Assembly: GCA_934122395.1 (NCBI GenBank)
Contig: CAKOWQ010000002.1
Span: 2,595-66,594 of the forward strand
Length of the DNA stretch: 64,000 bases
Reading direction: 5' to 3'
Source of the DNA: an uncultured Bacilli bacterium
GTDB taxonomy: Bacteria; Bacillota_I; Bacilli_A; RF39; UBA660
Made by a program: the position numbers and the translations under genes. Positions 1-16,504 of this stretch are shown piece after piece. Every line of letters begins with the position of its first letter. The first letter of the stretch is position 1. The notes under the pieces were generated by a model that did no database searches, was not told where the DNA came from, and was given only the letters and a program-made list of their open reading frames with translations.

Positions 1-3000
1 ATAATTGTTTTTATACATTTGTCTATTTTGTTCCACTTCTTCTACTTCATCATCTAATATTTCATTAGTTTTCTCATTCATATTTAATAATCTATTAACT
101 TCATTTAATCTTTTTTGTTTATCTTTTAACTCTTCTTCTTGATTAAATGGTTTGCCAAACTCTAATTTTGCTTTTTCAAGTTGAGTTTTTATTGTTTCAA
201 GTTCTGTTTGAGAGTCTAATAAATGACTTGATATATTATCTAGTGCATTATCAATTCTTGTAATATTTCCAAGTTCACTATTTCCTAGATTAACTACAAC
301 AGTAGAGTTTCTTTTTAAGATTAAGTTATATTCTTTCATAAAAGCAAAGAACTTTAACTCCATTTTAAATCCTTTATATTCTCCTATCTCTTTTGTTTCA
401 TCACTTATAATACTTTTGCATTCATCAATTATCTTTGCTCCTGCATCTTGCTTTTCAGAATATGTTATTCCATTAATAATCATACCAGTAAAACTATCTT
501 CATTACTATAATTATTATTTAGATATTCAATATCATTTTTATAATTTTCTATTTCTTTTTCTAGTTCTTTTATTCTATTAGGATACTTCTTTTTTATTCT
601 ATCTTCTAAATCATATTGTTCATTTAGATAGCTTTGTTTTAAAAGTTTTAATTTTGATACTTGAGTATCTAACTCGGTTTTTTCTATTATTAGTGGATTA
701 CCAGCTGCAAGTGCTTTTATTTCTGCATAAGAAAGTGCTACTTCATCTATATCTTCAGCACTTCTAACAGGTGTTTTAGATGTCATTATTTGAGATATGA
801 ACTTCTGTTTATTCTCTACTAACTGATAAAGGTAAGCATCAAATGTTTTTTCTGTTACATATCTATAAATATATACTTCTTTATTTTGATTTCCTTGTCT
901 TATAATTCTTCCACTTCTTTGTATTAAATCACTAGGTCGCCATGGACAATCTAAATCATGAAGTGCAATTAATCTATCTTGACAGTTTGTTCCAGCACCC
1001 ATTTTAACAGTGCTTCCCATTAAAACTCTTACTTGTCCTGCTCTAACTTTTGCAAATAATGCTTGTTTTTGTAATTCTGTATTAGCATTATGGATAAATT
1101 CTATTTCATTTTCTGGTATTCCTTTTGCTACTAATTTGTTTTTTAAATCAGTGTAAGCATCAAATGAGCCATCACCTTTTGGTGTTGATAAATCGCAAAA
1201 TACTAATTGAGCAGATTTTTTATCTTTTGTTTCTTCCCATATTCTATAAATATTTTGAGAACAAGTATCTATTTTACTATTCTCATAATCTGGTAATAAT
1301 TCATTTATTAGTCTTTGATCTAGTGCTATTTTTCTACCCTCATTAGTGATTTTAAGCATATTATCTTCTTTTGAATCTACTTCTCTATTTCTTACTTTTT
1401 CAGCTCGTTCTCCTAATGAATTTACTAAATCCAGTTGTGTTTGACTTGGTTTTATTACTACATTTTCATAATTTGCTTTTGGTAATGGCAAATTTAATGT
1501 ATCAGATGTTTTAATATCAGCGACTTCTATAAACATATTCATTAACTCTGGTAAGTTATAAAACTTGGCAAATCTTGTTTTAGTTCTATAACCAGTTCCC
1601 TCTGGTGCTAATTCTATTGCAGTTACTGTTTCTCCAAAAGTAGATGCCCAAGCATCAAAATGTTGTAACCTACTTTCTATTAGTTTATCGTATTGTAAGT
1701 ATCTTTGCATAGTGTATAGTTCCACCATAGAGTTAGAAATTGGTGTTCCAGTCGCAAATACTATTCCTTTTCCACCAGTTATTTCATCTAAATATCTACA
1801 TTTCATAAACAAGTCACTAGACTTTTGTGCTTCCGTTTGAGCAATACCACCTACATTTCTCATTTTAGTATAAAGATATAAGTTCTTATAATAATGTGCT
1901 TCATCAACAAATAATCTATCTACACCTAACTCTTCAAAAGTAATTACATCATCTTTTCTTGATGTACTATTTAGATTTGCTAACTTTTTCTCAATAGACT
2001 TCTGTGTTTTCATCAATGCTTTAATACTAAATCTTTCTCCGTTATGATTTTTTAAATCCTCAATTCCTTTTAATGTATCTTGAAGTTGCTGCTCTAATAT
2101 GGCAACTTGCCTTTTAATGGACATTGGTATTTTTTCAAATTGAGAGTGTCCTATAATTACTGCATCCCACTCTCCAGTAGCAATTCTTGAACAAAACTTT
2201 TTTCTATTTGCTGTTTCAAAATCTTTTTTAGTTGAAACAAGTATATTAGCACTAGGATATAATTGCAAGAACTCACTAGCAAATTGCTCTATTATATGAT
2301 TAGGTACTACAAATAAACTTTTATTGCAAAGTCCTAATCTTTTACTTTCCATAGCACTTGCTACCATTTCAAAAGTTTTACCAGCACCAACTTCATGAGC
2401 TAGTAAAGTATTTCCACCATATAAAACTCTTGCTATTGCATTTACTTGATGTGGTCTTAATGTTATTTCTGGATTTATTCCATCAAATGTTATATGACTG
2501 CCATCATATTCTCTTGGAATTATTGCATTAAACTTTTCATTGTAAAGATATGTTAATCTTTCTCTTCTTTCTTGGTCATTCCATACCCAATCTTGAAATG
2601 CCTGTTTAATTTTATCTTGTTTAGCTTGAGCTATTGCTGTTTCTTTTTTATTTAATACTGCAACTTTTTTCCCATTTTCATCATAGTTATAATCAAAGAT
2701 TTTAGTATCTCTTAAATTAAGTGCATCTTCTATTAGTCTATAAGCATTAGCTCTATTTGTTCCATAAGTAGATGTTACAGCAATAGTATTCCTATCACAA
2801 CTTTTATTTTCAATGTTCCATTCACCAGTCATATCAGAATAATGTGCTTTTACATCTCTTCTAGCATAGATACTAGCATCTATTAACTCTAAAATAAAAC
2901 TAGTAATTATATCTTCTGGTATCCATGTTGCACCTATTCTTATACTTATTTCAGTAGGTGGAATATCTTTTGGAATAACTTTCTTTAAGTATTCTACATT

Positions 3001-6000
3001 GATTTGATAACTATTATCTTCAAATGCAAACTGTCTTGCCACTTTTAGTTTTTCACGAACATTACCAGATAAATACTCATCAGCAGTAACCCAATGATTA
3101 GAATTACCATATTCAGGTACTCTAAATATTTCTCCTTCTAGTTCTTCAAGCATTTTGTCTGTATCCAGTCCACATAACTTTTGCATATATGATATATCAA
3201 CTTTTGCTTTTTCTTGTATTGATACTATTAAAGCATCTCTTGCATTTTCAATAATTCTTTCTTTTGATTTCGGTTTAATTGTTCTTTTGTTAAATAAATC
3301 AGCTTTTCTTTTTAGATTTCCATTTTCATCTAAAACTTCAAGTGAACATAAAAGAAAATAACTTCCATCATTTGAAAATACACTAGCATTACCACGACTG
3401 TTGATAAGTCCATACTTTTTAACAAACTTATCATATAATTCGTTTAACTCTTTTTGTTTATCTTGTATTTCTTCATCACTAGCATTATCTAGCTGCAAGT
3501 TAATAATTTCTCTTGTTATATCTCTTAATTTAACTAAATTCTTAACTCTATTTTCAGCAGTTTCTGATAAGTTTTGAGGATACATTCTACTATTTTCTCT
3601 ATAATAAATTACATTATCAATTAAAGCATAAGAAAAGTTTTTTACATTTATATCAGCTTCAATAGATAAATCTTCATTATCTGCTATATCATCAATCTTA
3701 TAATCTTTTATTTCTGCTTTAACATTTGGTATTGCATTATTAAGCATTTCTTCTAAATTCATACCATCTACAGGAATACAAGCAGGTTCTTCTCCAAATG
3801 GTGTTGATATTAATTCCATTTTTCCTAGTATCATTTGTGGATTATCAACGAAATATTTATTTATTCTTAAATTATTTTCATCAGTATCAATATTTATCCA
3901 GTCTGGCATTATATCTGTAATTGAATCTCTTTTTTGAAGAAATATTATATCTGATGTAACTGTTGTTCCAGCACTATCTTTAAATACATTATTAGGTAGT
4001 CTTATAGCACCAATTAAATCTGCTCTGCTTGCTACATACTTTCTTACATCATCATTCTTTTTATCCATAAATCCTTGAGATGTAATAAATGCTATTATTC
4101 CTCCTGGTCTTACTTTATCTATGGCTTTTGCAAAAAAGTAATCATGTATTAAGAAGTTTCTCATATCATATTTCTTATCGCTTACAGGAATATTTCCAAA
4201 TGGAACATTTCCTATTGCAACATCAAAAAAAGAATTTGAATAGTTTACTTCTTCAAATCCTTTAACTGCGATAGATGACTTTTGATATAACTGTCTTGCT
4301 ATATTTCCACTAATTATATCTTTTTCTACTCCATATATTTTTAACTTATCATTATTCGGTAAAAGTCCAATAAAGTTTCCTATACCACAACCGGGTTCTA
4401 ATATATTCCCTTTATCAAGTCCCATATTGGATAAAGCTTTATACATTGCTTTAATTACCACTGGTGGTGTATAAAAAGCTGTTAAAGTTGATTCTTTTGC
4501 TTGAATATATTCTTCTTCAGTTAGAAGTTCTTTTAATTCATAATACTCATCAGTCCATCTATCTGGATCAAAAGCATCTGATAATCCACCCCAACCAACA
4601 TAATTAGAAAGTATTTCTTGTTCTTCACTTGTAGCATATCTATTTTCTTTCTCACACTTTCTTAAAACATTTATTGCTTTAATATTATTTCTATACCTTT
4701 CTTTTGGTGTTCCCACTCCTAAATAATCAGTATGTATCTTGTAATTTATTCTATCTTCTAATGGTACTTCTGGATGAAGAACATAACTAACTTCTCTTGG
4801 TTTTGTTTTAATAGGAACTTCTATTTTATCTTCTTTTAAATCATCAATTATTAAAGTATTATCTTTATTATTTATATCCTCTAATACTTCTTCTTTATCA
4901 ACACTTAAATCTAATACTTTATCATCAAAGTTATGATAATAAACATATATACTATCTGGAGTAACCCTTATAGCAAAGTCTTTATCTTTTTCAAGCATTT
5001 TAAATAGTTTATTACTTTCTATTTGCTCTTTTAACCTTAATTCACTTGTTTTATCAGTATTAAAATATGTAAAACTAGTATCGTGATTAGTATTATTACT
5101 ACTTTCTAATGATATTGTTAGATTTCTTTTTTTAGATTTAATATGTTCCCATTTTTCTAATTCTACTTTTTTTATTTCAAAACTATTTTCCCATATTGTA
5201 TCTTTAGAACACTTATTAAACATATCAACTATAACATCAGCAAACTCTTGCTCTTTAGTGGCAAACAAAGATAACTGTGCTTTCTCACTTCTTGGCATTA
5301 CTATTTTTTCTTTTTCAGTTGGTAATTTAGTTTCTTCCTTTTCATATTTATTAGCATAGTTTTTTAATTTATTATAATCTTCCTCATTTAATAATGTGGG
5401 AATATTATTATCATTATAATTAAATAATTCATCAAATATAAACTTATAAAACTCTTTACCATACCAAATATTATCATCATCCATTGCTATCAGATTATCT
5501 TTATCATCATACATCAATTCAATATCATTTATCTTGTATTTATTTAATACATCATAAAGTAATCCTATTTCTCCATCAGTTTTATCATACATATAAATAA
5601 CTGAAGAAAATTCATCATTAAATATTTGTTCTAACTTATCAAATAAAGCATCTGTTGATAATCCTTTATTAAACCAATCTGCCTCTACTATTTCGTTTTC
5701 CCAGGTATCCTCATTTGTTCTAGTTCCTAATTCTACTGTTGCTATTCCATTTATATAATGAAGTTCTACACAGTATAAATTAGTTTTAACTCTTGCTACT
5801 GTAAATGAGTTAGTATCATCTAAATCTTCTAAATTAGTTATTAACTCACTTTCAACAATATCTTTTCTACTATCTGAAAAAAGAATACTGTTGTTAGTAT
5901 TCTCTTGATTTAGTTGAAGATTAACTCCCTCATCACTATTTCCTCTGCTTGATTCTTCAAGTTGTTCATTAGTCCTGTCCACTTCATTGGATCTTCCATC

Positions 6001-7095
6001 TTCAAGTTCTCTGTTATATTCTCTTGTGCTATCAATTCTTTCATTATCAAGTTCACTCTCATCTCGGCTGTTGTATCTATCTCCAATAGGTGTTCTGTTA
6101 GTGTATCCTTGATTTTCATTTGCTCGTATAAAGGTTTCTTCTTGCTCTTTAGGTAATCCAACCTCATAAAACCATATTTCCCTATGTTGAAGTTTCTCTC
6201 TTTCACTTTCAAGTTCGGTATCTTGTAATCTCCTACTGTTTTGTAAGTTATCATTTACTTCACTCCTCTCCTTTAATTCATCTTTAGCATAAACTATATT
6301 TTTATCATTATCAAATGTACGAATTTTTTCTATTTCGCTTATTCTTATATTTTTTAATGTTTCATAAATATTAAGCAGTGTCATTTTACTTATATCACTT
6401 GTAGCAGTTCCTAAACTTACAACACTCTCTATATCTTGAAACATTATAATATCTTGAAAATCAGTATATAAAAACTCTTTATCAGCATTACCCACACATT
6501 TATTTATAAGCATATAAGCAATACTTTTTTGAAGTAAGTTTTTATATTTTTGAATAATTAAATCATTATCTATATTTATGAGTCTCGTATTTTCTTTATT
6601 ATCTAGTAAATAATCAATATAATCTGTTATGTTATCTTCCACTAAATTAGTTGCAACTGATTTTAAACTATCAATAAAAGTATCTTTATTTTCTAATTCT
6701 CCATATCTATTTTCTAGTGCCTCTACAACTTGATCTTGATAAGCTATTCCTACATTCCAAACTCTAACCTTTTTACCTTTTCTACCATACATACTTTGAG
6801 TATCTGATACATCCCATACATATCTTATAGATGGTTTGCCATACTTTTCAGTTATTAGTGCTATACCACTATGACCTTTTTTAATTATTCTATTTAATTT
6901 ACTATTCCAAGTATCATAACTAGCACAAGCTATAGCAGTTGGTCTTTGAGCATATATAAGTAATTGCTCATCAAAATCATACTTATAGTTCTTTGAGGCA
7001 CAACTTAAAAACGATTGCCATTTTCTTGAATCAGAGGTTATATCAGCAATCGTTTCATTATAGACTTCTTTAATATCTACTAATGTTGTAGCCAT
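1..7095 (-). CDS. Giant conjugative-element protein (C-terminus beyond window start, more than 2360 aa). Domains in order: ArdC-like N-terminal domain, acidic repeat linker, N6-adenine DNA methyltransferase, SNF2/DEXH helicase, coiled-coil tail.
   Basis: Continuous minus-strand reading frame from ATG at 7095 (SD GAGAGG 8 nt upstream) to position 1 with no stop found by manual translation. MTase motif I 'LEPGCGIGNF' (~4370-4400) and motif IV 'GNVPFG' (~4195-4212). Helicase motif I 'AHEVGAGKTF' (~2385-2400), motif II 'LFVDEAHYYKN' (~1895-1915) and C-terminal helicase motifs. N-terminus 'YDTWNSKLNRIIKKGHSGIALI' resembles ArdC-N ssDNA-binding domains. Absent from the ORF track only because no stop codon lies in the window. 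Confidence 0.7.
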   Translation of the reverse strand, partial: MATTLVDIKEVYNETIADITSDSRKWQSFLSCASKNYKYDFDEQLLIYAQRPTAIACASYDTWNSKLNRIIKKGHSGIALITEKYGKPSIRYVWDVSDTQSMYGRKGKKVRVWNVGIAYQDQVVEALENRYGELENKDTFIDSLKSVATNLVEDNITDYIDYLLDNKENTRLINIDNDLIIQKYKNLLQKSIAYMLINKCVGNADKEFLYTDFQDIIMFQDIESVVSLGTATSDISKMTLLNIYETLKNIRISEIEKIRTFDNDKNIVYAKDELKERSEVNDNLQNSRRLQDTELESEREKLQHREIWFYEVGLPKEQEETFIRANENQGYTNRTPIGDRYNSRDESELDNERIDSTREYNRELEDGRSNEVDRTNEQLEESSRGNSDEGVNLQLNQENTNNSILFSDSRKDIVESELITNLEDLDDTNSFTVARVKTNLYCVELHYINGIATVELGTRTNEDTWENEIVEADWFNKGLSTDALFDKLEQIFNDEFSSVIYMYDKTDGEIGLLYDVLNKYKINDIELMYDDKDNLIAMDDDNIWYGKEFYKFIFDELFNYNDNNIPTLLNEEDYNKLKNYANKYEKEETKLPTEKEKIVMPRSEKAQLSLFATKEQEFADVIVDMFNKCSKDTIWENSFEIKKVELEKWEHIKSKKRNLTISLESSNNTNHDTSFTYFNTDKTSELRLKEQIESNKLFKMLEKDKDFAIRVTPDSIYVYYHNFDDKVLDLSVDKEEVLEDINNKDNTLIIDDLKEDKIEVPIKTKPREVSYVLHPEVPLEDRINYKIHTDYLGVGTPKERYRNNIKAINVLRKCEKENRYATSEEQEILSNYVGWGGLSDAFDPDRWTDEYYELKELLTEEEYIQAKESTLTAFYTPPVVIKAMYKALSNMGLDKGNILEPGCGIGNFIGLLPNNDKLKIYGVEKDIISGNIARQLYQKSSIAVKGFEEVNYSNSFFDVAIGNVPFGNIPVSDKKYDMRNFLIHDYFFAKAIDKVRPGGIIAFITSQGFMDKKNDDVRKYVASRADLIGAIRLPNNVFKDSAGTTVTSDIIFLQKRDSITDIMPDWINIDTDENNLRINKYFVDNPQMILGKMELISTPFGEEPACIPVDGMNLEEMLNNAIPNVKAEIKDYKIDDIADNEDLSIEADINVKNFSYALIDNVIYYRENSRMYPQNLSETAENRVKNLVKLRDITREIINLQLDNASDEEIQDKQKELNELYDKFVKKYGLINSRGNASVFSNDGSYFLLCSLEVLDENGNLKRKADLFNKRTIKPKSKERIIENARDALIVSIQEKAKVDISYMQKLCGLDTDKMLEELEGEIFRVPEYGNSNHWVTADEYLSGNVREKLKVARQFAFEDNSYQINVEYLKKVIPKDIPPTEISIRIGATWIPEDIITSFILELIDASIYARRDVKAHYSDMTGEWNIENKSCDRNTIAVTSTYGTNRANAYRLIEDALNLRDTKIFDYNYDENGKKVAVLNKKETAIAQAKQDKIKQAFQDWVWNDQERRERLTYLYNEKFNAIIPREYDGSHITFDGINPEITLRPHQVNAIARVLYGGNTLLAHEVGAGKTFEMVASAMESKRLGLCNKSLFVVPNHIIEQFASEFLQLYPSANILVSTKKDFETANRKKFCSRIATGEWDAVIIGHSQFEKIPMSIKRQVAILEQQLQDTLKGIEDLKNHNGERFSIKALMKTQKSIEKKLANLNSTSRKDDVITFEELGVDRLFVDEAHYYKNLYLYTKMRNVGGIAQTEAQKSSDLFMKCRYLDEITGGKGIVFATGTPISNSMVELYTMQRYLQYDKLIESRLQHFDAWASTFGETVTAIELAPEGTGYRTKTRFAKFYNLPELMNMFIEVADIKTSDTLNLPLPKANYENVVIKPSQTQLDLVNSLGERAEKVRNREVDSKEDNMLKITNEGRKIALDQRLINELLPDYENSKIDTCSQNIYRIWEETKDKKSAQLVFCDLSTPKGDGSFDAYTDLKNKLVAKGIPENEIEFIHNANTELQKQALFAKVRAGQVRVLMGSTVKMGAGTNCQDRLIALHDLDCPWRPSDLIQRSGRIIRQGNQNKEVYIYRYVTEKTFDAYLYQLVENKQKFISQIMTSKTPVRSAEDIDEVALSYAEIKALAAGNPLIIEKTELDTQVSKLKLLKQSYLNEQYDLEDRIKKKYPNRIKELEKEIENYKNDIEYLNNNYSNEDSFTGMIINGITYSEKQDAGAKIIDECKSIISDETKEIGEYKGFKMELKFFAFMKEYNLILKRNSTVVVNLGNSELGNITRIDNALDNISSHLLDSQTELETIKTQLEKAKLEFGKPFNQEEELKDKQKRLNEVNRLLNMNEKTNEILDDEVEEVEQNRQMYKNNY

Positions 7096-7114
7096 TTAAT
7101 TTACCTCTCTTTCT

Positions 7115-7438
7115 TTATTTTTTTTGTTCTCTATTTTCAATTAACTTACTATAATAATCTTCTACATTATCATTTTTTTCAGCTCGTAATAATAATTGCC
7201 AAATCATATCACTTGCTTCGTTAGGAAAAAATCTTACATCTACAAATTCTATATCATCATTATTAACTCTTGGTACTGAATATGTAAGTAATTTATTCTT
7301 TAATTTTTCTGCAGTTGTTGAAAACTTTTCATCTTCAATATTCATCTTTATATTAAAATCTAAAATACCAACTAATTGATTAAATAAATCTTTACATAAT
7401 GATAATTGTGTAGATGGTGTTCTTGTTTGATGTGGCAT
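7115..7438 (-). CDS. Hypothetical protein (107 aa), leading-region small ORF.
   Basis: ORF track. Tightly packed between the sortase cluster and the giant MTase/helicase, same strand, near-overlapping neighbours. No recognisable motif. Confidence 0.4.
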   Translation of the reverse strand: MPHQTRTPSTQLSLCKDLFNQLVGILDFNIKMNIEDEKFSTTAEKLKNKLLTYSVPRVNNDDIEFVDVRFFPNEASDMIWQLLLRAEKNDNVEDYYSKLIENREQKK

Positions 7439-7743
7439 TATATCTTCACTCCTCTCCTAATTGTTTTTGGGAATATTACTAAACAATCATCTATTTCTTC
7501 ACTTTTGTTACTATTCCCTAATAATTCTCCTCTAATTTCAATGTATGTATTTTTATTTATTTCTGGGAAATCATTTATACAAGGTGTAAATAATATAAAT
7601 GATATATAGTTATTAACTCTTTCAATCTTATTATCATTTATAACTTTCATCTTTGTAGGTATTTCTAAAATAAATCTTGTAAATAATTCATTATCAAATA
7701 CATCTTTCTTTATAACTTTACCTGATATTTTTATTTCATTCAT
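7438..7743 (-). CDS. Hypothetical protein (101 aa), possibly an OB-fold/SSB-like protein.
   Basis: ORF track. N-terminus 'MNEIKISGKVIKKDVF..ELFTRFILEI' resembles the N-terminal strand pattern of plasmid SSBs (MN.v.L.GrL...). Start overlaps the stop of the upstream ORF (ATGA-type coupling). Confidence 0.3.
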   Translation of the reverse strand: MNEIKISGKVIKKDVFDNELFTRFILEIPTKMKVINDNKIERVNNYISFILFTPCINDFPEINKNTYIEIRGELLGNSNKSEEIDDCLVIFPKTIRRGVKI

Positions 7744-7967
7744 CTTTCATCACTCCTATCTTTATCTTTATTTAACGACACTTGTTCTACTACTTTACTT
7801 TCTTTTATTTCTACATCTATATTTTTAGATAGTTTATCTTTTATATCTTTAACTGTAATACTATCTAATGTATCTTTTAATATTCTTCTAGCTTCTTCTT
7901 CATTTTCTGCTACTACAGTTATTTTCATTCTTTCGTATAAATTAACATTAAACTCATAATTATTCAT
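7740..7967 (-). CDS. Hypothetical protein (75 aa).
   Basis: ORF track. 4-nt overlap with the downstream ORF, consistent with an operon of small leading-region genes. Confidence 0.35.
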   Translation of the reverse strand: MNNYEFNVNLYERMKITVVAENEEEARRILKDTLDSITVKDIKDKLSKNIDVEIKESKVVEQVSLNKDKDRSDER

Positions 7968-8208
7968 TTTCTTTTCCTCCTTTTATTTCTTCGCTATTAC
8001 TTAAAAAAGCAATTATTTGTCTATTCTTAATTGCTTTCTTTAAATCTAATAAAATAATTATTTCATTACCATTTACATCTTGTATTTTTGTTAAATCATC
8101 TAATTTTATATTTAAAATATCTTTTTCAGTTTTAAATCCTGCTTTAAATATTTTCTCTAATACTTTTGTTATTTGACTTAAATTATACTTATTCATAGTT
8201 TTCCTCAC
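7960..8208 (-). CDS. Hypothetical protein (82 aa).
   Basis: ORF track. 8-nt overlap with the neighbouring ORF. No recognisable motif. Confidence 0.35.
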   Translation of the reverse strand: MRKTMNKYNLSQITKVLEKIFKAGFKTEKDILNIKLDDLTKIQDVNGNEIIILLDLKKAIKNRQIIAFLSNSEEIKGGKENE

Positions 8209-8866
8209 TTTCTAGTTCTAAAATATAAACTATTTGCTTTGTTTTATCAGTTTGACTACAAGTAATTAAAGTTAAAGTATTCTTTTTATTATCTCTATGA
8301 ATTACAACTTTTCCTGTCTTATCAACATCATATTTTCCTGCTACTTTATATGTATATTTAATATTATTAAAATAAACATAGGCAACATCATCATTGCTTA
8401 ATTTATATAGATTTTTAAAATATGATATATAACTATTTCCAGAATGAGCAGCAATTATAAGATTTCCATTTTTAACATCTGGCATATCACTACCCTTTAT
8501 TACTTGTAAGTTTTTATTAACATTATTACCTTTATCATTGATATTTAAAAATCCTCTTTTTACATTTATTTTAGGTATTTCAAGAACTCCAATATAACTA
8601 TAATTTGGTGTTTTCTTTTCTTCTTGTTTTGGTTGTTCTTGAGTATCTTCATCATCAATATCAACTTTTATTACTTCAACTTCTTCTTTACCAATATTTA
8701 AAAACTCTTGGGCTTTTTTATAATCTCTTAGTTCTATGTAATAGTTATAACCAATTCTACCTATATACATAAAAGCACCAGTTAAGAATATGAAAGAAGC
8801 AACTAGTTTAATTAGTTGCTCCCTTTTATTTACATTTTTATTTTCTTTTGTTCTTTTTAGAAACAT
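8189..8866 (-). CDS. Sortase (cysteine transpeptidase).
   Basis: N-terminal TM anchor. Active-site His region 'LIIAAHSG' and catalytic Cys motif 'TLTLITC' (TLxTC). Sits immediately downstream of, and overlapping, its likely substrate gene. Confidence 0.75.
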   Translation of the reverse strand: MFLKRTKENKNVNKREQLIKLVASFIFLTGAFMYIGRIGYNYYIELRDYKKAQEFLNIGKEEVEVIKVDIDDEDTQEQPKQEEKKTPNYSYIGVLEIPKINVKRGFLNINDKGNNVNKNLQVIKGSDMPDVKNGNLIIAAHSGNSYISYFKNLYKLSNDDVAYVYFNNIKYTYKVAGKYDVDKTGKVVIHRDNKKNTLTLITCSQTDKTKQIVYILELESEENYE

Positions 8867-11411
8867 AAAGAAATACCCCCATTCCTACTACCATACAAGT
8901 AACACTAATTACTGTATATAGTTTACTGTTATTAGCCATAGTGTTTGGTACTTCAACTATTTGTTCATTAGTTAAATTAGCTTTAACTATTTCTCCATTT
9001 TCTTTGATTTCAAACTCTATAACTTCATCTGTTATTTGGTAACCAGTTGCACTTTCTTTTTCAATAATATGTCCTTTTCCTATAAATAAATCTTTAATGA
9101 TAATTTGACCATTTTCATCAGTAAGTCCAGAGAATATTAAAGTAGATTCTATTGTTCCATCTTCTAGTTCTTTATCTGAATAGATTTCTATTAAAGTATT
9201 AGGAATTGGTTTACCACTAACTAAATCTGTTTTAGTAAATTCTAAAGTTCCTTTTTTATAATAGTTTTGTAATTCTACATCTTTAACTATTTCTTTAGTA
9301 TATTGATCTTTATACTTTAACTCAAAAGTATATATTTTTTCATCTAACACATGATTATTATCTGTTGATTTCTCTTTTATATAGTATTTTCCAAGCTCAA
9401 GCCCATCAATAGTTGCCTTACCATCAGCAGTAATAACAGTTGTTATCAATTCATCTTTTGAATATTTTTTCTTACCACTAACATAAATATCCTCGTTAGC
9501 ATAAAGTTCTAATTCAACTTCGCTTAATAATATCTTTTTGTATCCAAAAGTATTATTATCTATAATTAGCTTTTCTCCATATTTAGTGATATTTAATTTT
9601 CCTTTAACTCTTTCATTCGCAAACTTAACTACTAATAAGGCACCGTAATCTTTATCAACTAGTATCTCGCTACCTTCTCCAATATGGATTGGCATTGCTT
9701 CACTATTCCAAACATAACCATCTAAGACATGATTTTCTACTTCTTCTAAAAGAAAATCTCCAACTAGATTTGATGGTGTTATAATCACTCCATTTTCATC
9801 TGTTTCATATTCACATACTTTTTTAGCAGTTGGATATGTTATTGTTTGACAAACATATTCATTAGTTTTAGCATCTTTTATTTTAAACTTAATACCTGCT
9901 TTAGTTATTACTTCGCCTGTTTCTTTATCAGTTTTAATAACTTTTAATTTTGCCTCAATAGGAGCATTGCTAACTAATTTATAAATATCACTACCAGTAT
10001 TTTCATTTACTTCAACTTCAAAATCTTTTACCTTTTCATAATCTGGTGTTGAATTAATTTGTTTAAAAGTATATTTACCATAAGGTAAAGTTATTTTTGC
10101 ATATCCTTTATCATCAGTTGTGATAGTATCTGCTAAACAAGTATTACTGTCTTTCAATAATGAATTAGAATTACAATTATTTAAGTAAATCTCAAATGTT
10201 ATATTAAGCTCGCCTTTTAATATTCCAGTTGCTCCACTTGCAAATGTTTTAAATAATGTAACATCTGCTTCTATAACTTTTTCATATACTTTCACATTAG
10301 CAAGTAAATTGTCTTTATCTACTACAAATGAATATTTATTGTTTGTATCTAAAGTATATCCTTTACTAGGTGATAGTTCTTTTAAATAAAACTCCCCTAA
10401 TGCTGGTAAATAATCACTTATACCATATCCATTTTCATCTGTAGTAATTTCTCCAACCTTTTCGTTATTCAAGTTATATATACCATACTTTGCACCACCT
10501 AGCGTGGCGTTTCCTTGTGGAATATTATTTTTAGTTTCACTATCCACTTTATTTATCTCTACTCTGCCACCAACTGACTCTAACTCTATACTCTTAACGA
10601 CTGGGTCAGCATTTCCAACTCTCATAACATTTTGAGAATGGTTAGAATAATAAACTATTGGAGTTACATCATAATAAGATGGTTTTTTAACTAAATTAAC
10701 TTTAACATTTTCTATTGAATTAGATGTGATTGTTAAAGTGTTTCCATTTATACTTGCTACACCATTTTCTACTGATGAAATACTAAATTGACTTAATACT
10801 CCATTTGTATCTGTAAAATCCAGACTTTTACCTATTGGTAATTTAACTCCGTCAATATTAAAACTTGGTTTAGTATAATGTTTATTTAATAAATCTTCCA
10901 TCTCTGCTATTTCACTAGCAAATTTATTTGGTAAGTCATTTCCATTTAGTGTATCTGTAAATACAATTCTTGATGTAGGTACTGCTGTTCTCCATATCAT
11001 AACCTGAGTAATCACATACCATTTATTATTTGAATGGTCATATCCATTTTCTTTATATTGATAACCATAATATGCTAAAAGTGATATTCTTTGCCATTGT
11101 TCTTCTGTCATATTAAGATATACAGCAAAATCACTTCTAGCTATTTTATAATAAGGCAAATTATTATCTATATCTACATAAGGTTGTAGGCAATAGACGA
11201 ATTTATTATCCTCACTTCTTCTTATAAATCCTGCTTGTTGATACTTAATGTATCCATCTTCTCTGTATTTTTTAATAAAAATATTTGCTATCTTTTCAGA
11301 TGGCCAAATAGCTTGACCTTTATATTCTTCAGCATTTACTTTTGTAATGCCAAAAAATATCGTAAAAAAAAGTATGCCGATTAAAGCATACAAAGTCTTT
11401 GTTTTATTCAT
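8838..11411 (-). CDS. Cell-wall-anchored surface adhesin with Cna-B-type (prealbumin-like) repeat domains and a C-terminal sorting signal.
   Basis: Signal peptide 'MNKTKTLYALIGILFFTIFFGITKVNA'. Repeated 'TDENG..' Cna-B-like modules (e.g. 'TDENGYGISDYLPALGEFYLKELSPSKGYTLDTN', 'GLTDENGQIIIKDLFIGKGHIIEKESATGYQ'). C-terminus 'VPNTM' followed by a hydrophobic segment and 'KKNKRK' tail, a classic sorting-signal architecture with a non-LPXTG motif. Confidence 0.7.
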   Translation of the reverse strand: MNKTKTLYALIGILFFTIFFGITKVNAEEYKGQAIWPSEKIANIFIKKYREDGYIKYQQAGFIRRSEDNKFVYCLQPYVDIDNNLPYYKIARSDFAVYLNMTEEQWQRISLLAYYGYQYKENGYDHSNNKWYVITQVMIWRTAVPTSRIVFTDTLNGNDLPNKFASEIAEMEDLLNKHYTKPSFNIDGVKLPIGKSLDFTDTNGVLSQFSISSVENGVASINGNTLTITSNSIENVKVNLVKKPSYYDVTPIVYYSNHSQNVMRVGNADPVVKSIELESVGGRVEINKVDSETKNNIPQGNATLGGAKYGIYNLNNEKVGEITTDENGYGISDYLPALGEFYLKELSPSKGYTLDTNNKYSFVVDKDNLLANVKVYEKVIEADVTLFKTFASGATGILKGELNITFEIYLNNCNSNSLLKDSNTCLADTITTDDKGYAKITLPYGKYTFKQINSTPDYEKVKDFEVEVNENTGSDIYKLVSNAPIEAKLKVIKTDKETGEVITKAGIKFKIKDAKTNEYVCQTITYPTAKKVCEYETDENGVIITPSNLVGDFLLEEVENHVLDGYVWNSEAMPIHIGEGSEILVDKDYGALLVVKFANERVKGKLNITKYGEKLIIDNNTFGYKKILLSEVELELYANEDIYVSGKKKYSKDELITTVITADGKATIDGLELGKYYIKEKSTDNNHVLDEKIYTFELKYKDQYTKEIVKDVELQNYYKKGTLEFTKTDLVSGKPIPNTLIEIYSDKELEDGTIESTLIFSGLTDENGQIIIKDLFIGKGHIIEKESATGYQITDEVIEFEIKENGEIVKANLTNEQIVEVPNTMANNSKLYTVISVTCMVVGMGVFLYVSKKNKRK

Positions 11412-11458
11412 ATTTATCTTTCCTTTCTTTTTCCAAAATAAAAAGACACTTTATGTGC

Positions 11459-12025
11459 CTAAAATAATTTAATCATTTCTCCTAAATATCTACCAGATGC
11501 ACTGTTTATTGTAGAACAAGAAAATCCCATTCCACTTTCTTCACCATACTTAATACAAGCATTAAAACAGTTTTCCTGACTTCCATACTTTTCAATAGAA
11601 AAATCTACTTTAGCCCAACTCCATGCAGGTTTATTGTAATAATCATCTTCACTCATTCCAAGTTCTTCCCAAGCTGTCATTTCTTTCTTTTCTTCTTGTT
11701 TTGGTTCTTCAATTACATTTTTTTCAACCTGTTTTTGTTCTGGTTGAGTAACTTTTTCTTCTTTTTGCACAGTACTTGTTTTTTGATCTGGTATATTTTT
11801 TTCTTTTTCCACAGTATTTGTTGATAAATCCTCTGCTTTTGAAATTGGTTCTTCTATTTTTTCTTCTTTTTGAGTATTAATTTCAACTTTATCTTGTGAT
11901 TCATGCTCAGCTTGATTTGATTTTGTTGTATCTGATTCCGGTACTGATTTTCCATTAAATGCACTCCCTAGTCCAACAACCAGACTTACAACTACAAAAG
12001 CTATAAAAATTCGTATTAGTTTCAT
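11459..12025 (-). CDS. Secreted Glu/Lys-rich protein with a Cys-containing C-terminal domain, function unknown.
   Basis: Signal peptide 'MKLIRIFIAFVVVSLVVGLGSA'. Imperfect E/K-rich repeats. Own promoter-like ATGACA-17-TATGTT and RBS AAGAGGAG upstream (12026-12090). Confidence 0.5.
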   Translation of the reverse strand: MKLIRIFIAFVVVSLVVGLGSAFNGKSVPESDTTKSNQAEHESQDKVEINTQKEEKIEEPISKAEDLSTNTVEKEKNIPDQKTSTVQKEEKVTQPEQKQVEKNVIEEPKQEEKKEMTAWEELGMSEDDYYNKPAWSWAKVDFSIEKYGSQENCFNACIKYGEESGMGFSCSTINSASGRYLGEMIKLF

Positions 12026-12173
12026 CTCACATCACTCCTCTTCTTTGTCTTAACATAGCATATTTTAACTATTTTGTCATATCTACTAATTATTTTTTTT
12101 CAGTTAGTAATAATAGTTAGTATTATTTTTAGGGGAGATTGTAAGAGGGGGCTTTTTGGCAAATATACTCCCA

Positions 12174-13139
12174 CTATCTTTCATTGCTTTCTTTTTCTCT
12201 CTTTTTTTGCAACCACCTCCCATAAAAACTAACTGCTTTAACAACATAATCTTCCTTTTCTTCATTTGTTGTAAGATTAGTTGGGAGTATATTATTTAAT
12301 TTGTCCATATTAACTTTTAGAGTTTGTATTTGATTAGGTTTTTCTTGCTCTAAAATAGTTTCCATATACTCTCTTGTAAGTTTATTATCTTTACTTAATC
12401 TTTTAAAATCTTGGGCTTGTGATAATGATGGAGTACAAGCAAAACATTCCATTATATCTAAAAGTTCTTTTTGTTCTTCTTCTTTTAAATAAGATATTTC
12501 AACTGCTGGACTTATTGCCATACTTGGAGATAATTTCAAAGCATCATTATCTACCATTTGAAGTATTTGTGGTATTAGTTCAGTTAGTCTAATATATCTA
12601 TGAACTTGTCTAGCACTTTCGTTGTTTTCCATACCTATTATATCAACAGTTTTTAACTTGTCGCCAACTTGGCGAGAAGTTGCAACTTTACCTTGATGAC
12701 TTAATGCTTCCATTTTTAATTTATAAGCAAATGCTTTCTCGCTTGGTAGTATCTTTTCTCTTTGCAAATTACTATCAACCATTATAATAGTTGCCTCATC
12801 ATCAGATAAATCTCTTACTATACAAGGTATTGTTTCTAATCCTGCTAACTCACTAGCAAACTTTCTTCTATGACCAGAAATCATTTCATATTTGCCATTT
12901 TCTTTTGGTCTAACTAATGTCGGCACTAATACGCCATTTTCACTAATACTTTCTGCCATTTGTTTCATATCTTCATTATCTATTACTTTAAATGGGTGTT
13001 TAGGGAAGTCATCTATATCATTTAAACTTATATTTACTACTTTTTCTTTTAATTTATCATCTCTCTCTTCTTGTGTTGAAAACAGGTCATCATCTAGTAA
13101 AATCTTTGGTAGAGGCATTTTTGTTTCTTTCTTTACCAT
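12174..13139 (-). CDS. parB: ParB-like partition protein (ParB/Spo0J N-terminal domain).
   Basis: 'GHRRKFASELAGLETIPCIV' ParB box II-like motif. Located directly downstream of parA with a short overlap. The true start may be the internal Met (MPLPKILL, ~13118). Confidence 0.7.
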   Translation of the reverse strand: MVKKETKMPLPKILLDDDLFSTQEERDDKLKEKVVNISLNDIDDFPKHPFKVIDNEDMKQMAESISENGVLVPTLVRPKENGKYEMISGHRRKFASELAGLETIPCIVRDLSDDEATIIMVDSNLQREKILPSEKAFAYKLKMEALSHQGKVATSRQVGDKLKTVDIIGMENNESARQVHRYIRLTELIPQILQMVDNDALKLSPSMAISPAVEISYLKEEEQKELLDIMECFACTPSLSQAQDFKRLSKDNKLTREYMETILEQEKPNQIQTLKVNMDKLNNILPTNLTTNEEKEDYVVKAVSFYGRWLQKKREKESNER

Positions 13140-13920
13140 TCTCCATTACCTCCTTTGCAAATAAGGTATATGAATCTGCTACCTTACTATTTTTATCATA
13201 AGAGAAAATACTTTCTCCATGAGATGTTGATTTTGCTACATTTACTGCCATAGGTATTTGAGTATTATATATCTTTACTTTACTTCCATAACTTTCTTGA
13301 AGTTCATATCTTACTTGATTAGGTAAAGTTGTTCTCTTATCTACTAGTGTAAGCAAAACACCATCTACCATCAAGTTTGGGTTTATTTGTTTTCTCACTC
13401 TTGAAATTGTTTGTAAAAATTGTCCCATACCTTTCGCAGCTAAAAACTGTGTTTGTACTGGAATAATTACTTTATCGGCACAAGCAAGAGCATTTATTGT
13501 TATCATACCTAAACTAGGCATACAATCTATCAGTATATAATCATACTTATCTTTATATTTAGATAATGTATTTCTCATAACACTTTCTCTACTCATTACA
13601 TTAACAAGTCCTACCTCTAATTGTGATAAATCTAAATTAGATGGTATTAAATCCACTTCTTCATTATGATGCAATATTACATCATCTATGTTTATATTGT
13701 CATCTCTAATAGTGGCACTCATTACATCTGCTAATGTAGTCTGTATTTTATCTAAATCAGTCCAACCCATGCAAGTAGTTAAATCTCCTTGTGGATCAGC
13801 ATCTACTAGTAATACTTTTTTTCCTCGTTTTGCTAATGCTACACCCAAATTAAAAGTGGTAGTTGTTTTACCAACTCCACCTTTTTGATTTGCAATAGCA
13901 TATATCTTACAATTATCCAC
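13090..13920 (-). CDS. parA: ParA/Soj-family partition ATPase (plasmid type, no N-terminal HTH).
   Basis: Deviant Walker A 'KGGVGKTTTT' and 'LLVDADPQGDLT'. 276 aa. Confidence 0.85.
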   Translation of the reverse strand: MDNCKIYAIANQKGGVGKTTTTFNLGVALAKRGKKVLLVDADPQGDLTTCMGWTDLDKIQTTLADVMSATIRDDNINIDDVILHHNEEVDLIPSNLDLSQLEVGLVNVMSRESVMRNTLSKYKDKYDYILIDCMPSLGMITINALACADKVIIPVQTQFLAAKGMGQFLQTISRVRKQINPNLMVDGVLLTLVDKRTTLPNQVRYELQESYGSKVKIYNTQIPMAVNVAKSTSHGESIFSYDKNSKVADSYTLFAKEVMENGKERNKNASTKDFTR

Positions 13921-14196
13921 TTTTTTCTCTCCTTTCTTAATATTTTAGTTTCGCAAAATCAAATAAAAAAAGAGCATATTTTCTCAAAATATTTAGCTCT
14001 AATATTTTTAAAATGCCCGTATTATATGACTTCAACGATTATTCTTGTATGTACCAGTTTTATAATTATCGTCCATGCCCTGCATCTACTACAATTTTAT
14101 AATCCATTCTATATTCCTCCTCGAAATATTTTATGATATTTATCTATATTGTTGTATAAAAAAAGAACAATTCAATATCATTGTTCCAAAAGATTG
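13921..14196 (-). promoter_or_regulatory. parA upstream control region with four AATATTT/AAATATTT palindromic repeats (candidate centromere/operator), and a Rho-independent terminator of the upstream small ORF (GGAACAATGATATTGAATTGTTC + T-run, ~14165-14200).
   Basis: Repeats 'tcaaaatatttagc', 'ctaatattttta', 'cgaaatattttatg' and 'taatattttag' within 200 nt. Inverted repeat GAACAAT...ATTGTTC followed by a T-run on the minus strand. Confidence 0.3.
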
Positions 14197-14385
14197 TTAA
14201 TCATCATCCTCATTATAATAATCGTCATCTTCCAAATCTTCTTCCTCAAAATTCCAACTATCATAATTTCCCTTATTCAATTCATCTGTTTGCAAGAAGT
14301 CTAAATCATTATTCCCATCCAGTTTATCCTTTTGATTTTCGGAGTCATCTAATAATCCTGACAAAAACGATAATATAATACCCAT
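14197..14385 (-). CDS. Small, highly acidic protein (62 aa) with a hydrophobic N-terminus.
   Basis: Strong RBS AAAGGAGGAG 6 nt upstream of the ATG. Sequence 'MGIILSFLSGLL' followed by a D/E-rich tail (EEEDLEDDDYYNEDDD). Own terminator downstream. Confidence 0.45.
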   Translation of the reverse strand: MGIILSFLSGLLDDSENQKDKLDGNNDLDFLQTDELNKGNYDSWNFEEEDLEDDDYYNEDDD

Positions 14386-14424
14386 GCTCTCCTCCTTTAT
14401 TATATTAGTATTATACTCTATAAA

Positions 14425-14450
14425 TATAAAAAGAACAATTTCTTGTTCTT
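14425..14450 (-). terminator. Rho-independent terminator of htrA.
   Basis: AAAGAACAAGAAATTGTTCTTTTT on the minus strand immediately after the htrA stop codon. Confidence 0.6.
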
Positions 14451-15559
14451 TAATCAGTTGATTTTGATAACGTTACAGTAGTTGTATGTTCTTTTCCACC
14501 CCTATTATAAGTAATAGTTATCTTATCTCCAACATTATATTTATATAAAACATATTTTAAATAAGCAGCATTCATTACTTCTTCTTTATCAATTTTAGTA
14601 ATTACATCACCTTTTTGTAATCCTGATTTTGATGCTCCAGAACCATTTACTACTTCGACTACAACAATACCACTTGTAGCATTATTTGGAATAGTAATAC
14701 CATAACTTGCTAAAGTTCTAGTATCGCTTGTATTTAATAGTTTTATTCCTAACATTGGCCTTTCAATTGTCTGAGATTTTTCTAGTTCTTCTACATGAGC
14801 CATGGCATCTTCAATCTTAATAGAGAACCCCATTCCTTCAATACTACTATCTACTAATTTCATTGAATTAACTCCAATTACTTCGCCATTCGAATTCATT
14901 AGTGGCCCCCCACTATTTCCAGGATTTATAGCTGCGTCAACCTGAGATACTTTCATAATCCAATCTGATTGTGAATTAACGCTAACAGTTACTAAACGGT
15001 CAATACCAGAAATAATACCGCTTGTAACAGTATTATAATATTCTTCACCCACTGGAGAACCTATAGTAAAGATAGTATCACCCAACTTTAATTTTTCAGT
15101 ACTACCAATAGTGGCAACTTTCAACACTTCTGATACTGGAATACGTAATACCGCAATATCTAAATATTCATCTCCACCTAATTTAGTAGTTTCTATTTCT
15201 TTTCCATTTGTCATAAGTACTGTTAATTTTGTTGCGTTTTCAACTACATGTTCATTAGTCATAATATATCCATATTTTTCATCAGTTTTATATACAAATC
15301 CACTACCAGTACTTGCTAATTTACTTCCTTGATAGTTTTTTATCATAACTACTGCATCATAAACTTTTTCAACAGCAGCACTTATTCCTGTATTATCTAC
15401 TATAACTTTATTTTCACAACTAGTATATTGGCATCCTAGTGCTCCAGCTTGATTACTACTACCTTTGCCAAATGGATTAGTAATTACTACATACATTACT
15501 CCTCCACCTAATAAAAATGCACACAAGACAAGTAGAAAATTAATTATTCTTCCACGCAT
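14450..15559 (-). CDS. htrA: HtrA/DegP-family serine protease (trypsin-like domain plus PDZ), membrane anchored.
   Basis: N-terminal TM anchor. Catalytic His 'MTNEHVV', Asp 'DIAVLRI' and Ser 'NPGNSGGPL'. C-terminal PDZ-like region. Confidence 0.85.
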   Translation of the reverse strand: MRGRIINFLLVLCAFLLGGGVMYVVITNPFGKGSSNQAGALGCQYTSCENKVIVDNTGISAAVEKVYDAVVMIKNYQGSKLASTGSGFVYKTDEKYGYIMTNEHVVENATKLTVLMTNGKEIETTKLGGDEYLDIAVLRIPVSEVLKVATIGSTEKLKLGDTIFTIGSPVGEEYYNTVTSGIISGIDRLVTVSVNSQSDWIMKVSQVDAAINPGNSGGPLMNSNGEVIGVNSMKLVDSSIEGMGFSIKIEDAMAHVEELEKSQTIERPMLGIKLLNTSDTRTLASYGITIPNNATSGIVVVEVVNGSGASKSGLQKGDVITKIDKEEVMNAAYLKYVLYKYNVGDKITITYNRGGKEHTTTVTLSKSTD

Positions 15560-15565
15560 TTGTTA

Positions 15566-16504
15566 TCACTCCTTTTCAATGTTAGCAATATTTTCCCAAT
15601 TTTCTGGAAATCCCATTCTATCTAATACTTTAGATATTGGTATAGAATATAAATTATAATTTAAATTATCTAATGCATGATCTATTTCAATAACCATATT
15701 TTTTATTTCAGTATCTGTTAATAAGTGTTTCATTATAATTATTAAAGCAAATAAATCGTTTTTACCATATTTGTATTCACCATCTACTTTTTCAATATTT
15801 AATAGATTATGATATATGGTATTACCTATAATTTTTTGTGTTTTGTTTTCAAACAATATATCTTCGTGTGCACATAAATTACGATAGTTAGATAAGATTG
15901 GTAAATATATACCTAAAGCATTAATATCCATACCATATATTTCAGCAATTGCAATTCTATCATCTATCCTTAGTATAGAGTATAATTCACTAACTATTCC
16001 AAAAGATAATACTTTAACTAATACCCATAACGGAATATATCCATAATTACTTAGATAGTGAACAGTAGCAGAATGTTGTCTACCATTAACATGAATTTGT
16101 CTTTTCATCTTCTTTATTAAATCATTTACTTGTCTTGATTTTTCAGGACTAGTATCAAAGTTTTTAGGCTTTAAATAATCATGTTCTTTGTAACCATATT
16201 TTTTAGATAAACGATAAGATATAATAGACTTTAGATTGTTTTCCACAATTAATAAATTTTTAAAAATAATATTACGGAATTGGCGGTCAAACAAAAATAA
16301 ACTATACAACTCCTCGAAAGTAGTTCCTTCTATAAATTTTTTAGGATCATTACTACTCATAAATAAATGTCTATATCCACTTAAGAAAAAGTAATTCTCT
16401 CTTAATAGTACTTCTTTTGCATAGACTTCGTCATTAATTACCAAGCCCTTATGCTTTAAGATTTCTATTTGTTCATCTAAAGTTTTGAACTGCTTTGTCT
16501 TCAT
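15566..16504 (-). CDS. Abortive-infection protein, Abi_2 (AbiD/AbiF-like) family.
   Basis: N-terminus 'LDEQIEILKHKGLVINDE...FLSGYRHLF' and conserved 'PLWVLVKVLSFGIVSELY ... YRNLCAHEDILF' (RNxxAH motif) typical of PF07751-type Abi proteins. Confidence 0.65.
   Translation of the reverse strand: MKTKQFKTLDEQIEILKHKGLVINDEVYAKEVLLRENYFFLSGYRHLFMSSNDPKKFIEGTTFEELYSLFLFDRQFRNIIFKNLLIVENNLKSIISYRLSKKYGYKEHDYLKPKNFDTSPEKSRQVNDLIKKMKRQIHVNGRQHSATVHYLSNYGYIPLWVLVKVLSFGIVSELYSILRIDDRIAIAEIYGMDINALGIYLPILSNYRNLCAHEDILFENKTQKIIGNTIYHNLLNIEKVDGEYKYGKNDLFALIIIMKHLLTDTEIKNMVIEIDHALDNLNYNLYSIPISKVLDRMGFPENWENIANIEKE

Follow-up and report, generated by a model that had tools for sequence, protein, structure and literature searches.

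What four very small genes of no recognised family do beside a giant methylase-helicase gene is the question raised by one locus of an integrative and conjugative element (ICE) in an uncultured Bacilli bacterium. The locus covers positions 7,115 to 8,208 of a 64,000-nucleotide stretch (hereafter, the window) of contig CAKOWQ010000002.1, and holds four overlapping open reading frames (ORFs), read in the order ORF4, ORF3, ORF2, ORF1 towards the giant gene. A first-pass annotation, made from the letters alone, had put them forward as candidate anti-defence genes. Our analysis leads elsewhere. ORF1, ORF3, and ORF4 are core genes that travel with the giant methylase-helicase gene, and are therefore plausible helpers for establishing transferred DNA; the product of ORF2 resembles single-stranded DNA-binding proteins (SSBs). 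We propose that the four ORFs encode small nucleic-acid-handling proteins that may help single-stranded DNA (ssDNA) to enter and become established, and that they lie in the probable leading region of the element; we judge the chances of this proposal to be about even.

A coupled cassette in the element backbone

The four ORFs are present on the minus strand where the first-pass annotation had placed them: ORF1 at 7115-7438 (107 aa), ORF2 at 7438-7743 (101 aa), ORF3 at 7740-7967 (75 aa), and ORF4 at 7960-8196 (78 aa). The overlaps between successive ORFs are 1, 4, and 8 nt, as had been reported, and so is the position of the cassette between a sortase gene (PF04203) and the giant methyltransferase ORF, which leaves the window. 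The exception is the start of ORF4, which had been read as an 82-aa frame from GTG 8208: the ORF is real, but its likelier start is ATG 8196. GTG 8208 reads as part of the GAGG Shine-Dalgarno (SD) sequence of ATG 8196; the 78-aa version is the one given by gene callers on related contigs, and homologues align from the same Met. If it starts at ATG 8196, as is most likely, ORF4 shares 8 nt with the end of the sortase gene (stop at 8189). A strong SD sequence can be read 7-10 nt 5' of the start of each ORF, for example AAGGAGG for ORF3, AGGAG for ORF2, and GGAGAGGAG for ORF1. Related loci contain all four ORFs in the same order and of comparable length, with protein identities of 27-83%, and the ratio of nonsynonymous to synonymous substitution rates (dN/dS), calculated against the close relative L020, is 0.28 for ORF4, 0.03 for ORF3, and 0.10 for ORF1. 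Identical or near-identical cassettes occur on many metagenomic contigs; the exact ORF1 protein was found on at least 1,000 of them, every time under the name "hypothetical protein". The four ORFs are genuine genes, far beyond chance.

The description of the locus as an operon of four holds in part. In sequence terms, the genes are coupled and co-transcribed; they do not form an operon of their own, as the overlaps continue upstream and no terminator sets them apart. The adhesin and sortase genes that precede the cassette overlap by 29 nt, the giant ORF begins 19 nt past ORF1, and a scan of minus-strand positions 8793 to 6500 found no terminator-like site. What had been described as an operon of four is, therefore, one part of a far longer transcription unit. 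The earlier statement that the proteins match no family is correct at the curated thresholds of Pfam, NCBIfam, PHROGs, and PADLOC; PADLOC returned no defence-system match, and Rfam returned no RNA family within positions 1-16,000 of the window. Inspection of the translations revealed no signal peptide or hydrophobic segment in any of the four ORFs. An accessory role for the adjacent sortase or adhesin was rejected on that ground, and because the conservation of the cassette is well above that of either gene.

The conservation pattern was established by tblastn of window proteins against 15 diverged loci. Identity to the window copy was 55-83% for ORF4, 36-91% for ORF1, and 28-96% for ORF3, compared with about 56-67% for ParA/ParB, 53-71% for the methylase segment of the giant protein, 35-45% for the sortase, and 22-46% for the adhesin. 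ORF listings of related ICE loci showed ORF4, ORF3, and ORF1 in each locus inspected. They are backbone genes under purifying selection, evolving as slowly as ParA/ParB and the methylase. The behaviour of ORF2 is different. Where present, it retains 27-40% identity at loci where ORF1 keeps 60-65%; it is cleanly absent from L020, whose neighbouring genes are 83-96% identical to those of the window, and is also absent from L021, L023, L024, L029, and L032. Since three of the genes are found everywhere and ORF2 is fast-evolving and patchy, the cassette consists of three backbone genes and one optional slot.

The cassette is also a hotspot for insertions (L029, 6404-7568; L026, 4585-5010; L028, 5624-5986; L008, 6861-7262). 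In L029, genes for DUF6664, SSB, and DUF3848 proteins are inserted between ORF1 and the giant gene, and in L007-L010 a further gene, for a 133-aa protein outside any known family, lies between the sortase gene and ORF4.

The element itself is an ICE that encodes a relaxase of the MobA/VirD2 type together with a NikA-like accessory protein, and its hosts are uncultured low-GC gut Bacilli. The loci that we retrieved (L001-L033) all carry the ParA/ParB-adhesin-sortase-cassette-giant gene arrangement at differing chromosomal insertion sites. An association with mobile elements, raised in the first-pass annotation, was confirmed in these loci: the homologues lie in mobile (ICE) contexts only, not in purely chromosomal ones, and no housekeeping fold was assigned to the proteins. 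The order of the cassette is kept in dozens of related ICEs of uncultured gut Bacilli and Clostridia. A scan of species-representative genomes returned 18 loci, all of them in gut metagenome-assembled genomes labelled Bacilli, "Tenericutes", Erysipelotrichaceae, or Clostridia, from human, ruminant, rabbit, and mouse sources. A distant relative with the same layout is a 334-kb replicon of Subdoligranulum variabile (OY725857.1), in which type IV secretion system (T4SS) genes and two integrases are apparent from inspection of N-terminal sequences only, not from Pfam. No occurrence was found in IMG/VR viral contigs, and a phage origin was therefore rejected. A 9-kb megablast query found no match among PLSDB plasmids; in tblastn searches, ORF2 and ORF4 matched nothing, ORF3 gave a chance-level match only, ORF1 gave a single informative match (Subdoligranulum), and two remote ORF1 relatives used as queries gave none.

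The downstream half of the gene string was read from L040, a copy that is 97% identical. The relaxase genes lie ~16 kb downstream of the cassette in this copy, encoding a NikA-like/MobC protein (PF21983, E = 8e-16) and a MobA/VirD2 relaxase (PF03432, E = 6e-37), and the cassette is located 16-20 ORFs upstream of nikA/relaxase in the same orientation. The relaxase side is the last to enter the recipient in systems of the NikA/NikB type and in F-like ones. By analogy, the half that contains the cassette is the probable leading, or establishment, region. As nic/oriT was not located, this assignment is inferred: upstream of nikA in L040 there are short, unconvincing repeats only and no convincing oriT inverted repeat, and no inverted repeats that could form ssDNA-promoter-like or oriT-like hairpins were found in window positions 11,300-14,500.

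Predicted properties of the four proteins

The first-pass annotation had remarked that ORF2 starts like plasmid SSBs, and matches at a sub-threshold level in PDB, hhalign, Pfam, and hidden Markov model (HMM) searches bear this out. The family is narrow, comprising 15 proteins at ≥67% identity in a word-indexed search. When a profile made from an alignment that included the syntenic diverged copies was compared with PDB sequences, SSBs provided two of the three top matches (E = 0.21 and 0.82), with alignments that start at residue 1. Comparison with a small SSB alignment by hhalign gave E = 2.3e-4 over 80 columns, at a probability of 44%. The L028 copy of ORF2 matches PF00436 over its full length (E = 1.5e-4, 22.2 bits, cut-off 26) and SSB_1 with E = 0.012, and the first non-family match of an ORF2 HMM run over 1,225 ORFs of the fetched loci was a canonical SSB (E = 8.7e-5). 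Like leading-region SSBs of the PF00436 type, such as that of the F plasmid, ORF2 is ~100 aa long, is in register with the OB domain from its first residues, has the SSB start signature (MN, hydrophobic run, G), and lies in a probable leading region near ParB-like and methylase genes. Unlike them, it scores below the Pfam gathering threshold, evolves fast, is dispensable in close relatives, and has no host-recruiting acidic tip: ORF2 and its homologues have basic ends (RRGVKI, KGVKL, KGVMK) in place of a C-terminal tip of the D-D-D-I-P-F type. Canonical SSB genes are found in or near the cassette in three relatives, in the order ORF4-SSB-ORF3-ORF1 in L026 (where the SSB was recognised by sequence alone) and ORF4-ORF3-ORF2-SSB-ORF1 in L028 (PF00436, E = 4e-25), and two genes after ORF1 in L029 (E = 3e-6). 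On these sequence comparisons, ORF2 is quite probably a divergent, tail-less OB-fold protein of the SSB type.

The 799 relatives of ORF4 that a profile search returned are all 74-83 aa long, and none has a Pfam domain or a name. ORF4 itself is basic (isoelectric point, pI, 8.9) and contains several invariant lysines. Its AlphaFold2 model (predicted local distance difference test score, pLDDT, 85) has five helices, and the best Foldseek matches in the PDB were the NusA acidic repeats, SAM domains, and the RAD51 N-terminal domain, with template-modelling (TM) scores of 0.4-0.5 and root-mean-square deviations (rmsd) of 2-4 Å over ~50 residues. The sequence profile weakly matches the C-terminal domain of the RNA polymerase (RNAP) alpha subunit (E about 0.6), and its hhalign comparison with the small ORF at the same position of the Subdoligranulum replicon gave E = 0.018. 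ORF4 resembles SAM-like/(HhH)2 modules in being a compact, basic five-helix bundle whose best PDB matches are of that class; it differs from them in being a stand-alone 78-aa protein and not part of a larger enzyme, and in having no significant match. As modelled, ORF4 looks like a SAM/HhH-like module, for which DNA binding or protein docking is plausible.

ORF3 is acidic (pI 5.0), with an N-terminal beta-alpha motif and a Glu-Arg pair as its invariant last two residues. It matches the DpnD/PcfM family (PF14207) with 19.4 bits (cut-off 25) and E = 1e-3, over residues 13-32 only; weak PF14207 matches were also obtained with 7 of 10 ORF3 homologues, the best with E of about 1e-3. No relative was found in the PDB. 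The Subdoligranulum locus (L033) has no detectable ORF3 homologue, and hhalign of the ORF3 profile against the small ORF at the same position there gave E = 0.14. ORF3 shares with DpnD/PcfM proteins (PcfM of pCF10, pneumococcal DpnD) its small size, its acidity, its origin in a conjugative element of Gram-positive bacteria, and the N-terminal strand-helix signature V.V.A.seeEA, but it lies under the family cut-off and only ~20 residues are covered. A relation of ORF3 to this family is thus weakly indicated by its sequence. To our knowledge, DpnD/PcfM proteins have no known function themselves, and membership would therefore add no mechanism for ORF3.

ORF1 is the constant neighbour of the giant gene. 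It lies directly upstream of that gene in L001-L032, with the exception of L029, where three genes intervene, and the adjacency extends to the Subdoligranulum replicon, where ORF1 is 34% identical; the identities of ORF1 copies so placed range from 100% down to that value. The family has 146+ close homologues and 219 clusters at 50% identity; almost every one of the 150 cluster representatives listed is a stand-alone protein of roughly 100-120 aa. ORF1 is acidic (pI 5.2), and its conserved core reads YSVPR…VDVRFFPNEASDMIWQLL. The AlphaFold2 model (pLDDT 83; predicted TM score, pTM, 0.70) has the topology b-a-a-b-b-a-a, i.e., a strand, two helices, a beta-hairpin, and two helices. Three fold candidates were considered and rejected. 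A type I KH domain would agree with the element order plus an extra helix, but there is no GXXG: the loop between helices 1 and 2 is NIKMNIEDE in the window, 99 homologues have no conserved glycine there, and the structural comparisons gave TM scores of 0.25-0.35, rmsd of 7-8 Å, and E of about 1-3. SUI1/aIF1 matched with E = 0.036 over 42 residues. A ribbon-helix-helix fold disagrees with the model, in which the N-terminal strand pairs inside a three-stranded sheet.

One metagenomic protein of 148 aa (P0327) joins an ORF3-like N-terminus (MKKFEIDVDINGTITFEVEAKNKKEA) to an ORF1-like C-terminus (KLLRYSVP…VDMRFYNNE). Such a protein may point, in the Rosetta-stone sense, to joint action of ORF3 and ORF1, or may have arisen as an artefact of gene calling or assembly.

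Possible roles of the cassette

If the four proteins assist establishment, they would act with the polyvalent methylase-helicase protein and the primase of the element on the transferred single strand. ORF2 would coat incoming ssDNA, from an optional slot that relatives fill with canonical SSB genes or leave without one. ORF4 would bind DNA, or partner a host protein associated with DNA or RNA polymerase; ORF3 would be a small alpha/beta, DpnD/PcfM-like member of the entry machinery; and ORF1 would be an acidic partner of the polyvalent protein. Published work provides a framework for this scheme. Polyvalent ArdC-N/methylase/SNF2 proteins of Tn1549-like elements have been proposed to protect and process entering ssDNA, and possibly to be co-transferred with it (PMC5512222). 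In leading regions, SSBs, methylases, and anti-defence genes are concentrated in approximately the first 30 ORFs, in one orientation (PMC11541004), and ParA, ParB, and SSB of an F-like plasmid are exported to recipients (PMC8406263). The giant gene resembles those of Tn1549-like elements in having an N-terminal module followed by a methylase and an SNF2 helicase; the present locus differs in that the four ORFs are separate small genes and not domains. A term search of the main text of PMC5512222 found no such companion genes, and the words "SSB" and "sortase" have 0 occurrences there.

Several observations weigh against this proposal. The activities of all four proteins are predicted, and none is demonstrated. 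The window copy of ORF2 has no match to the Pfam SSB family PF00436 (gathering score 26 bits), and its affinity to SSBs lies under curated thresholds, with the hhalign probability of 44%. All Foldseek matches of ORF4 have E>1, and its alignment contains no conserved Gly-hydrophobic-Gly hairpin: at that place the window copy reads QDVNGNE and most homologues read PDISS(T/S)D, with no conserved glycine. For ORF1, no relative was found in searches of Pfam, PHROG, and PDB sequences, Pfam also being blank for 113 diverse members of the family, and Foldseek gave nothing significant in the PDB or BFVD. As ORF1 has no relative of known function in sequence or fold, its role is argued from gene adjacency. 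The N-terminal 332 aa of the giant protein have no Pfam match at E≤0.01, ArdC_N included. Finally, ~6 kb of cargo and 15-16 ORFs lie between the cassette and nikA, and the leading position is assigned by analogy.

The suggestion from which the analysis started, that one or more of the ORFs are dedicated anti-defence inhibitors, expressed early in the recipient and acting against a defence protein of the host through direct binding or through mimicry, appears unlikely to us. The setting is in its favour: the cassette is part of what is probably the leading half, has the uniform orientation that is typical of anti-defence genes in leading regions (PMC11541004), and adjoins a polyvalent methylase/helicase of a counter-restriction kind (PMC5512222). 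All four proteins are small and belong to no known family, ORF1 and ORF3 are mildly acidic, and the fold of ORF1, being without assignment, leaves room for a new inhibitor. Other observations count against it. No match to ArdA, ArdB/KlcA, PsiB, Acr, or Ocr-like families was obtained with any of the four in Pfam, NCBIfam, and PHROGs, a search that used no dedicated anti-defence HMM library, and the 113 diverse ORF1 relatives likewise matched no anti-defence family in Pfam. Net charges at pH 7 are -3.4 for ORF1, +0.5 for ORF2, -3.5 for ORF3, and +1.5 for ORF4. DNA mimics such as ArdA and Ocr are far more negatively charged. Structure prediction followed by structural search, the route envisaged in the first-pass annotation, produced SAM/HhH-type top matches for ORF4, which are not significant, and nothing recognisable for ORF1, lending no support to an anti-defence function. 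Nor does the evolutionary pattern fit patchy, fast-exchanged cargo: ORF4, ORF3, and ORF1 form a syntenic backbone that evolves no faster than ParB or the methylase, and the sole variable member, ORF2, is SSB-like. A comparison with the leading-region anti-defence islands of Samuel et al. 2024 (PMC11541004) points in both directions. The cassette resembles the islands in its small, uniformly oriented genes, within ~20 ORFs of the presumed oriT and near genes of SSB, ParB, and methylase types; it differs in that the known islands are mosaics of exchangeable, recognisable genes, and here three of the four genes are a fixed backbone without anti-defence homology. The claim that these are anti-restriction, anti-CRISPR, or SOS-inhibition factors is thus not upheld by family matches, charge, or fold.

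Two other functions can be considered for individual members. In one, which we rate as rather improbable and which is drawn from an analogy with VirE1-VirE2, ORF1 would be a chaperone or export adaptor of the 2,367-aa polyvalent protein, keeping its N-terminal DNA-binding region inactive in the donor and handing the protein to the coupling protein, with ORF3 as a co-exported factor. ORF1 is small, acidic, stand-alone in nearly all of the 150 listed representatives of its 219 clusters, and encoded immediately before the giant gene (19 nt away in the window) across elements of Bacilli and Oscillospiraceae with one exception, L029 and its three intervening genes. Its resemblance to VirE1, a small acidic protein encoded immediately upstream of a very large protein predicted to act on transferred ssDNA, is one of arrangement only; ORF1 has no sequence or fold similarity to VirE1 or to other known secretion chaperones, and export of the giant protein is hypothetical, although transfer of polyvalent proteins with DNA has been proposed (PMC5512222). 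C-terminal Glu-Arg (-ER) pairs are enriched in ICE backbone proteins, namely ORF3, ParB, SSBs, the primase, and the polyvalent protein, which would suit a common export signal, but the pattern may have another cause; the apparent ORF3-ORF1 fusion would suit joint action, but P0327 is a single metagenomic cluster and a possible assembly or gene-calling artefact. The chaperone model as a whole is argued from gene context. A broader form of it, that ORF1, possibly with ORF3, represents a new class of small partners for the polyvalent methylase-helicases of Firmicutes ICEs (VirE1-like, with -ER recognition), or else a defence inhibitor of a new fold, we hold to be similarly doubtful. If true, ORF1 would let a protein of 2,300-3,200 aa pass a Gram-positive T4SS together with DNA.

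In the other, the least probable of the functions considered, the small proteins would regulate the transfer operon; for example, ORF4 might modulate RNAP or antitermination for read-through of the >30-kb gene string after excision. The sequence common to copies at different sites starts ~20 nt 5' of the ParA GTG (AAGAAAGGAGAGAAAAA; window ~13,920-13,945), and ParA is therefore the first gene of the integrated element. With the element end so close, the ParA-to-primase string has no room for a promoter of its own when integrated, and is probably expressed through read-in, either after circularisation or from the flank. That requirement, the length of the operon, the lack of internal terminators in the part scanned, and the weak resemblance of ORF4 to the RNAP alpha C-terminal domain and the NusA acidic repeats would all suit a regulator. 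Each of these resemblances is non-significant, however; regulators usually lie at the start of an operon or divergent from it, and not in its middle after adhesin and sortase genes, and canonical HTH regulators are encoded elsewhere in the element. Compared with these alternatives, the establishment reading is the one that we prefer.

Layout and further features of the element

The string begins, co-directionally, with ParA, ParB, a 188-aa protein, the adhesin, the sortase, ORF4, ORF3, ORF2, ORF1, and the giant gene. It continues in L040, on one strand, with genes for HTH_3, DUF6664, DUF3848, and DUF3991/Toprim primase proteins, cargo of about ten ORFs (~6 kb, between the primase and NikA-like genes), and the NikA-like, relaxase, and DUF3801 genes. 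In the window, all on the minus strand, ParA (ParA families) lies at 13090-13920, the ParB_N-domain protein at 12174-13139 (Pfam ParB_N, E = 8e-21), an 857-aa surface adhesin with SpaA/TED domains (precomputed Pfam) at 8838..11411, and the sortase at 8189..8866 (PF04203, E = 2.4e-18). The 5' 2,365 codons of the giant polyvalent gene occupy 1..7095 as an uninterrupted translation that runs off the window; in related contigs the protein has 2,367 aa (full length in L040), with an Eco57I-type methylase and an SNF2/ResIII helicase.

Flanks on the ParA side vary by assembly: Abi_2/HtrA in this window, and elsewhere an integrase with SecA, a cation ATPase, histidine kinases, or Zip/KilA-N. In L004 (2521-3798), a tyrosine integrase lies directly upstream of ParA, beside secA, and the window copy has no integrase at that end, which suggests that the integration module is exchanged between otherwise near-identical elements. 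Between the HtrA-like protease gene and the element end, an extremely acidic 62-aa ORF (14197-14385, minus strand; C-terminal half EEEDLEDDDYYNEDDD) occurs only in assemblies with the L001 insertion site, and is therefore probably chromosomal. The adhesin, with TED thioester and SpaA domains, ends in EVPNTMANNSK, a hydrophobic stretch, and KKNKRK. Its sorting signal looks non-canonical (VPNTM/VPNTI, not LPXTG) and is presumably matched to the element's own fast-evolving sortase.

Two features of the element are more unusual than the four-ORF cassette itself. One is a 114-aa TnpV gene (5910..6254, minus strand; PF14198, E = 1.2e-35, 111/111 positions), nested in the +1 frame of the giant gene over a stretch rich in E, R, N, and D (giant aa 281-396). 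It has an SD sequence of its own (GGAGAGGAG), and both the nesting and the relative frame are kept in 13/13 related loci; in the high-GC Subdoligranulum element, TnpV (E = 2e-44) lies inside a 3,208-aa ORF. Over the shared bases, the TnpV frame is conserved at 47-58%, versus 31-44% for the giant frame. The nested TnpV is a candidate conserved overlapping gene, judged by these alignments, and a literature search turned up no description of the arrangement.

The other is the recurrence of -ER C-termini, which are found in ORF3, ParB, the polyvalent protein, the DUF3848 protein, the Toprim primase, the DUF3801 protein and the protein after it, and the inserted SSBs. In the window, such ends are encoded at 7740-7745 (ORF3) and 12174-12182 (ParB), and they are also present in L040, L033, L034, L026, and L028. 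Long ORFs of two elements have them in 6/25 and 7/25 cases, versus 1/55 ORFs in the chromosomal part of the window. The codons used, the stop codon, and the distance to the next start all vary, and orthologues from distant hosts retain the -ER; selection thus seems to act at the peptide level. The terminus could be an export or processing signal.

Uncharacterised small backbone genes and a divergent SSB are an ordinary finding for a mobile element. The element is, at the same time, very abundant in gut metagenomes, and its host lineage is uncultured. The ORF1 family (219 clusters) and the ORF4 family (about 800 proteins) are uncharacterised, and neither is in Pfam. As fixed companions of the polyvalent methylase-helicase, the backbone genes of the cassette narrow the search for factors that establish the element in new hosts, and the cassette would provide concrete targets for tests of the leading-region model in ICEs of Gram-positive bacteria, in which the model has received hardly any attention.

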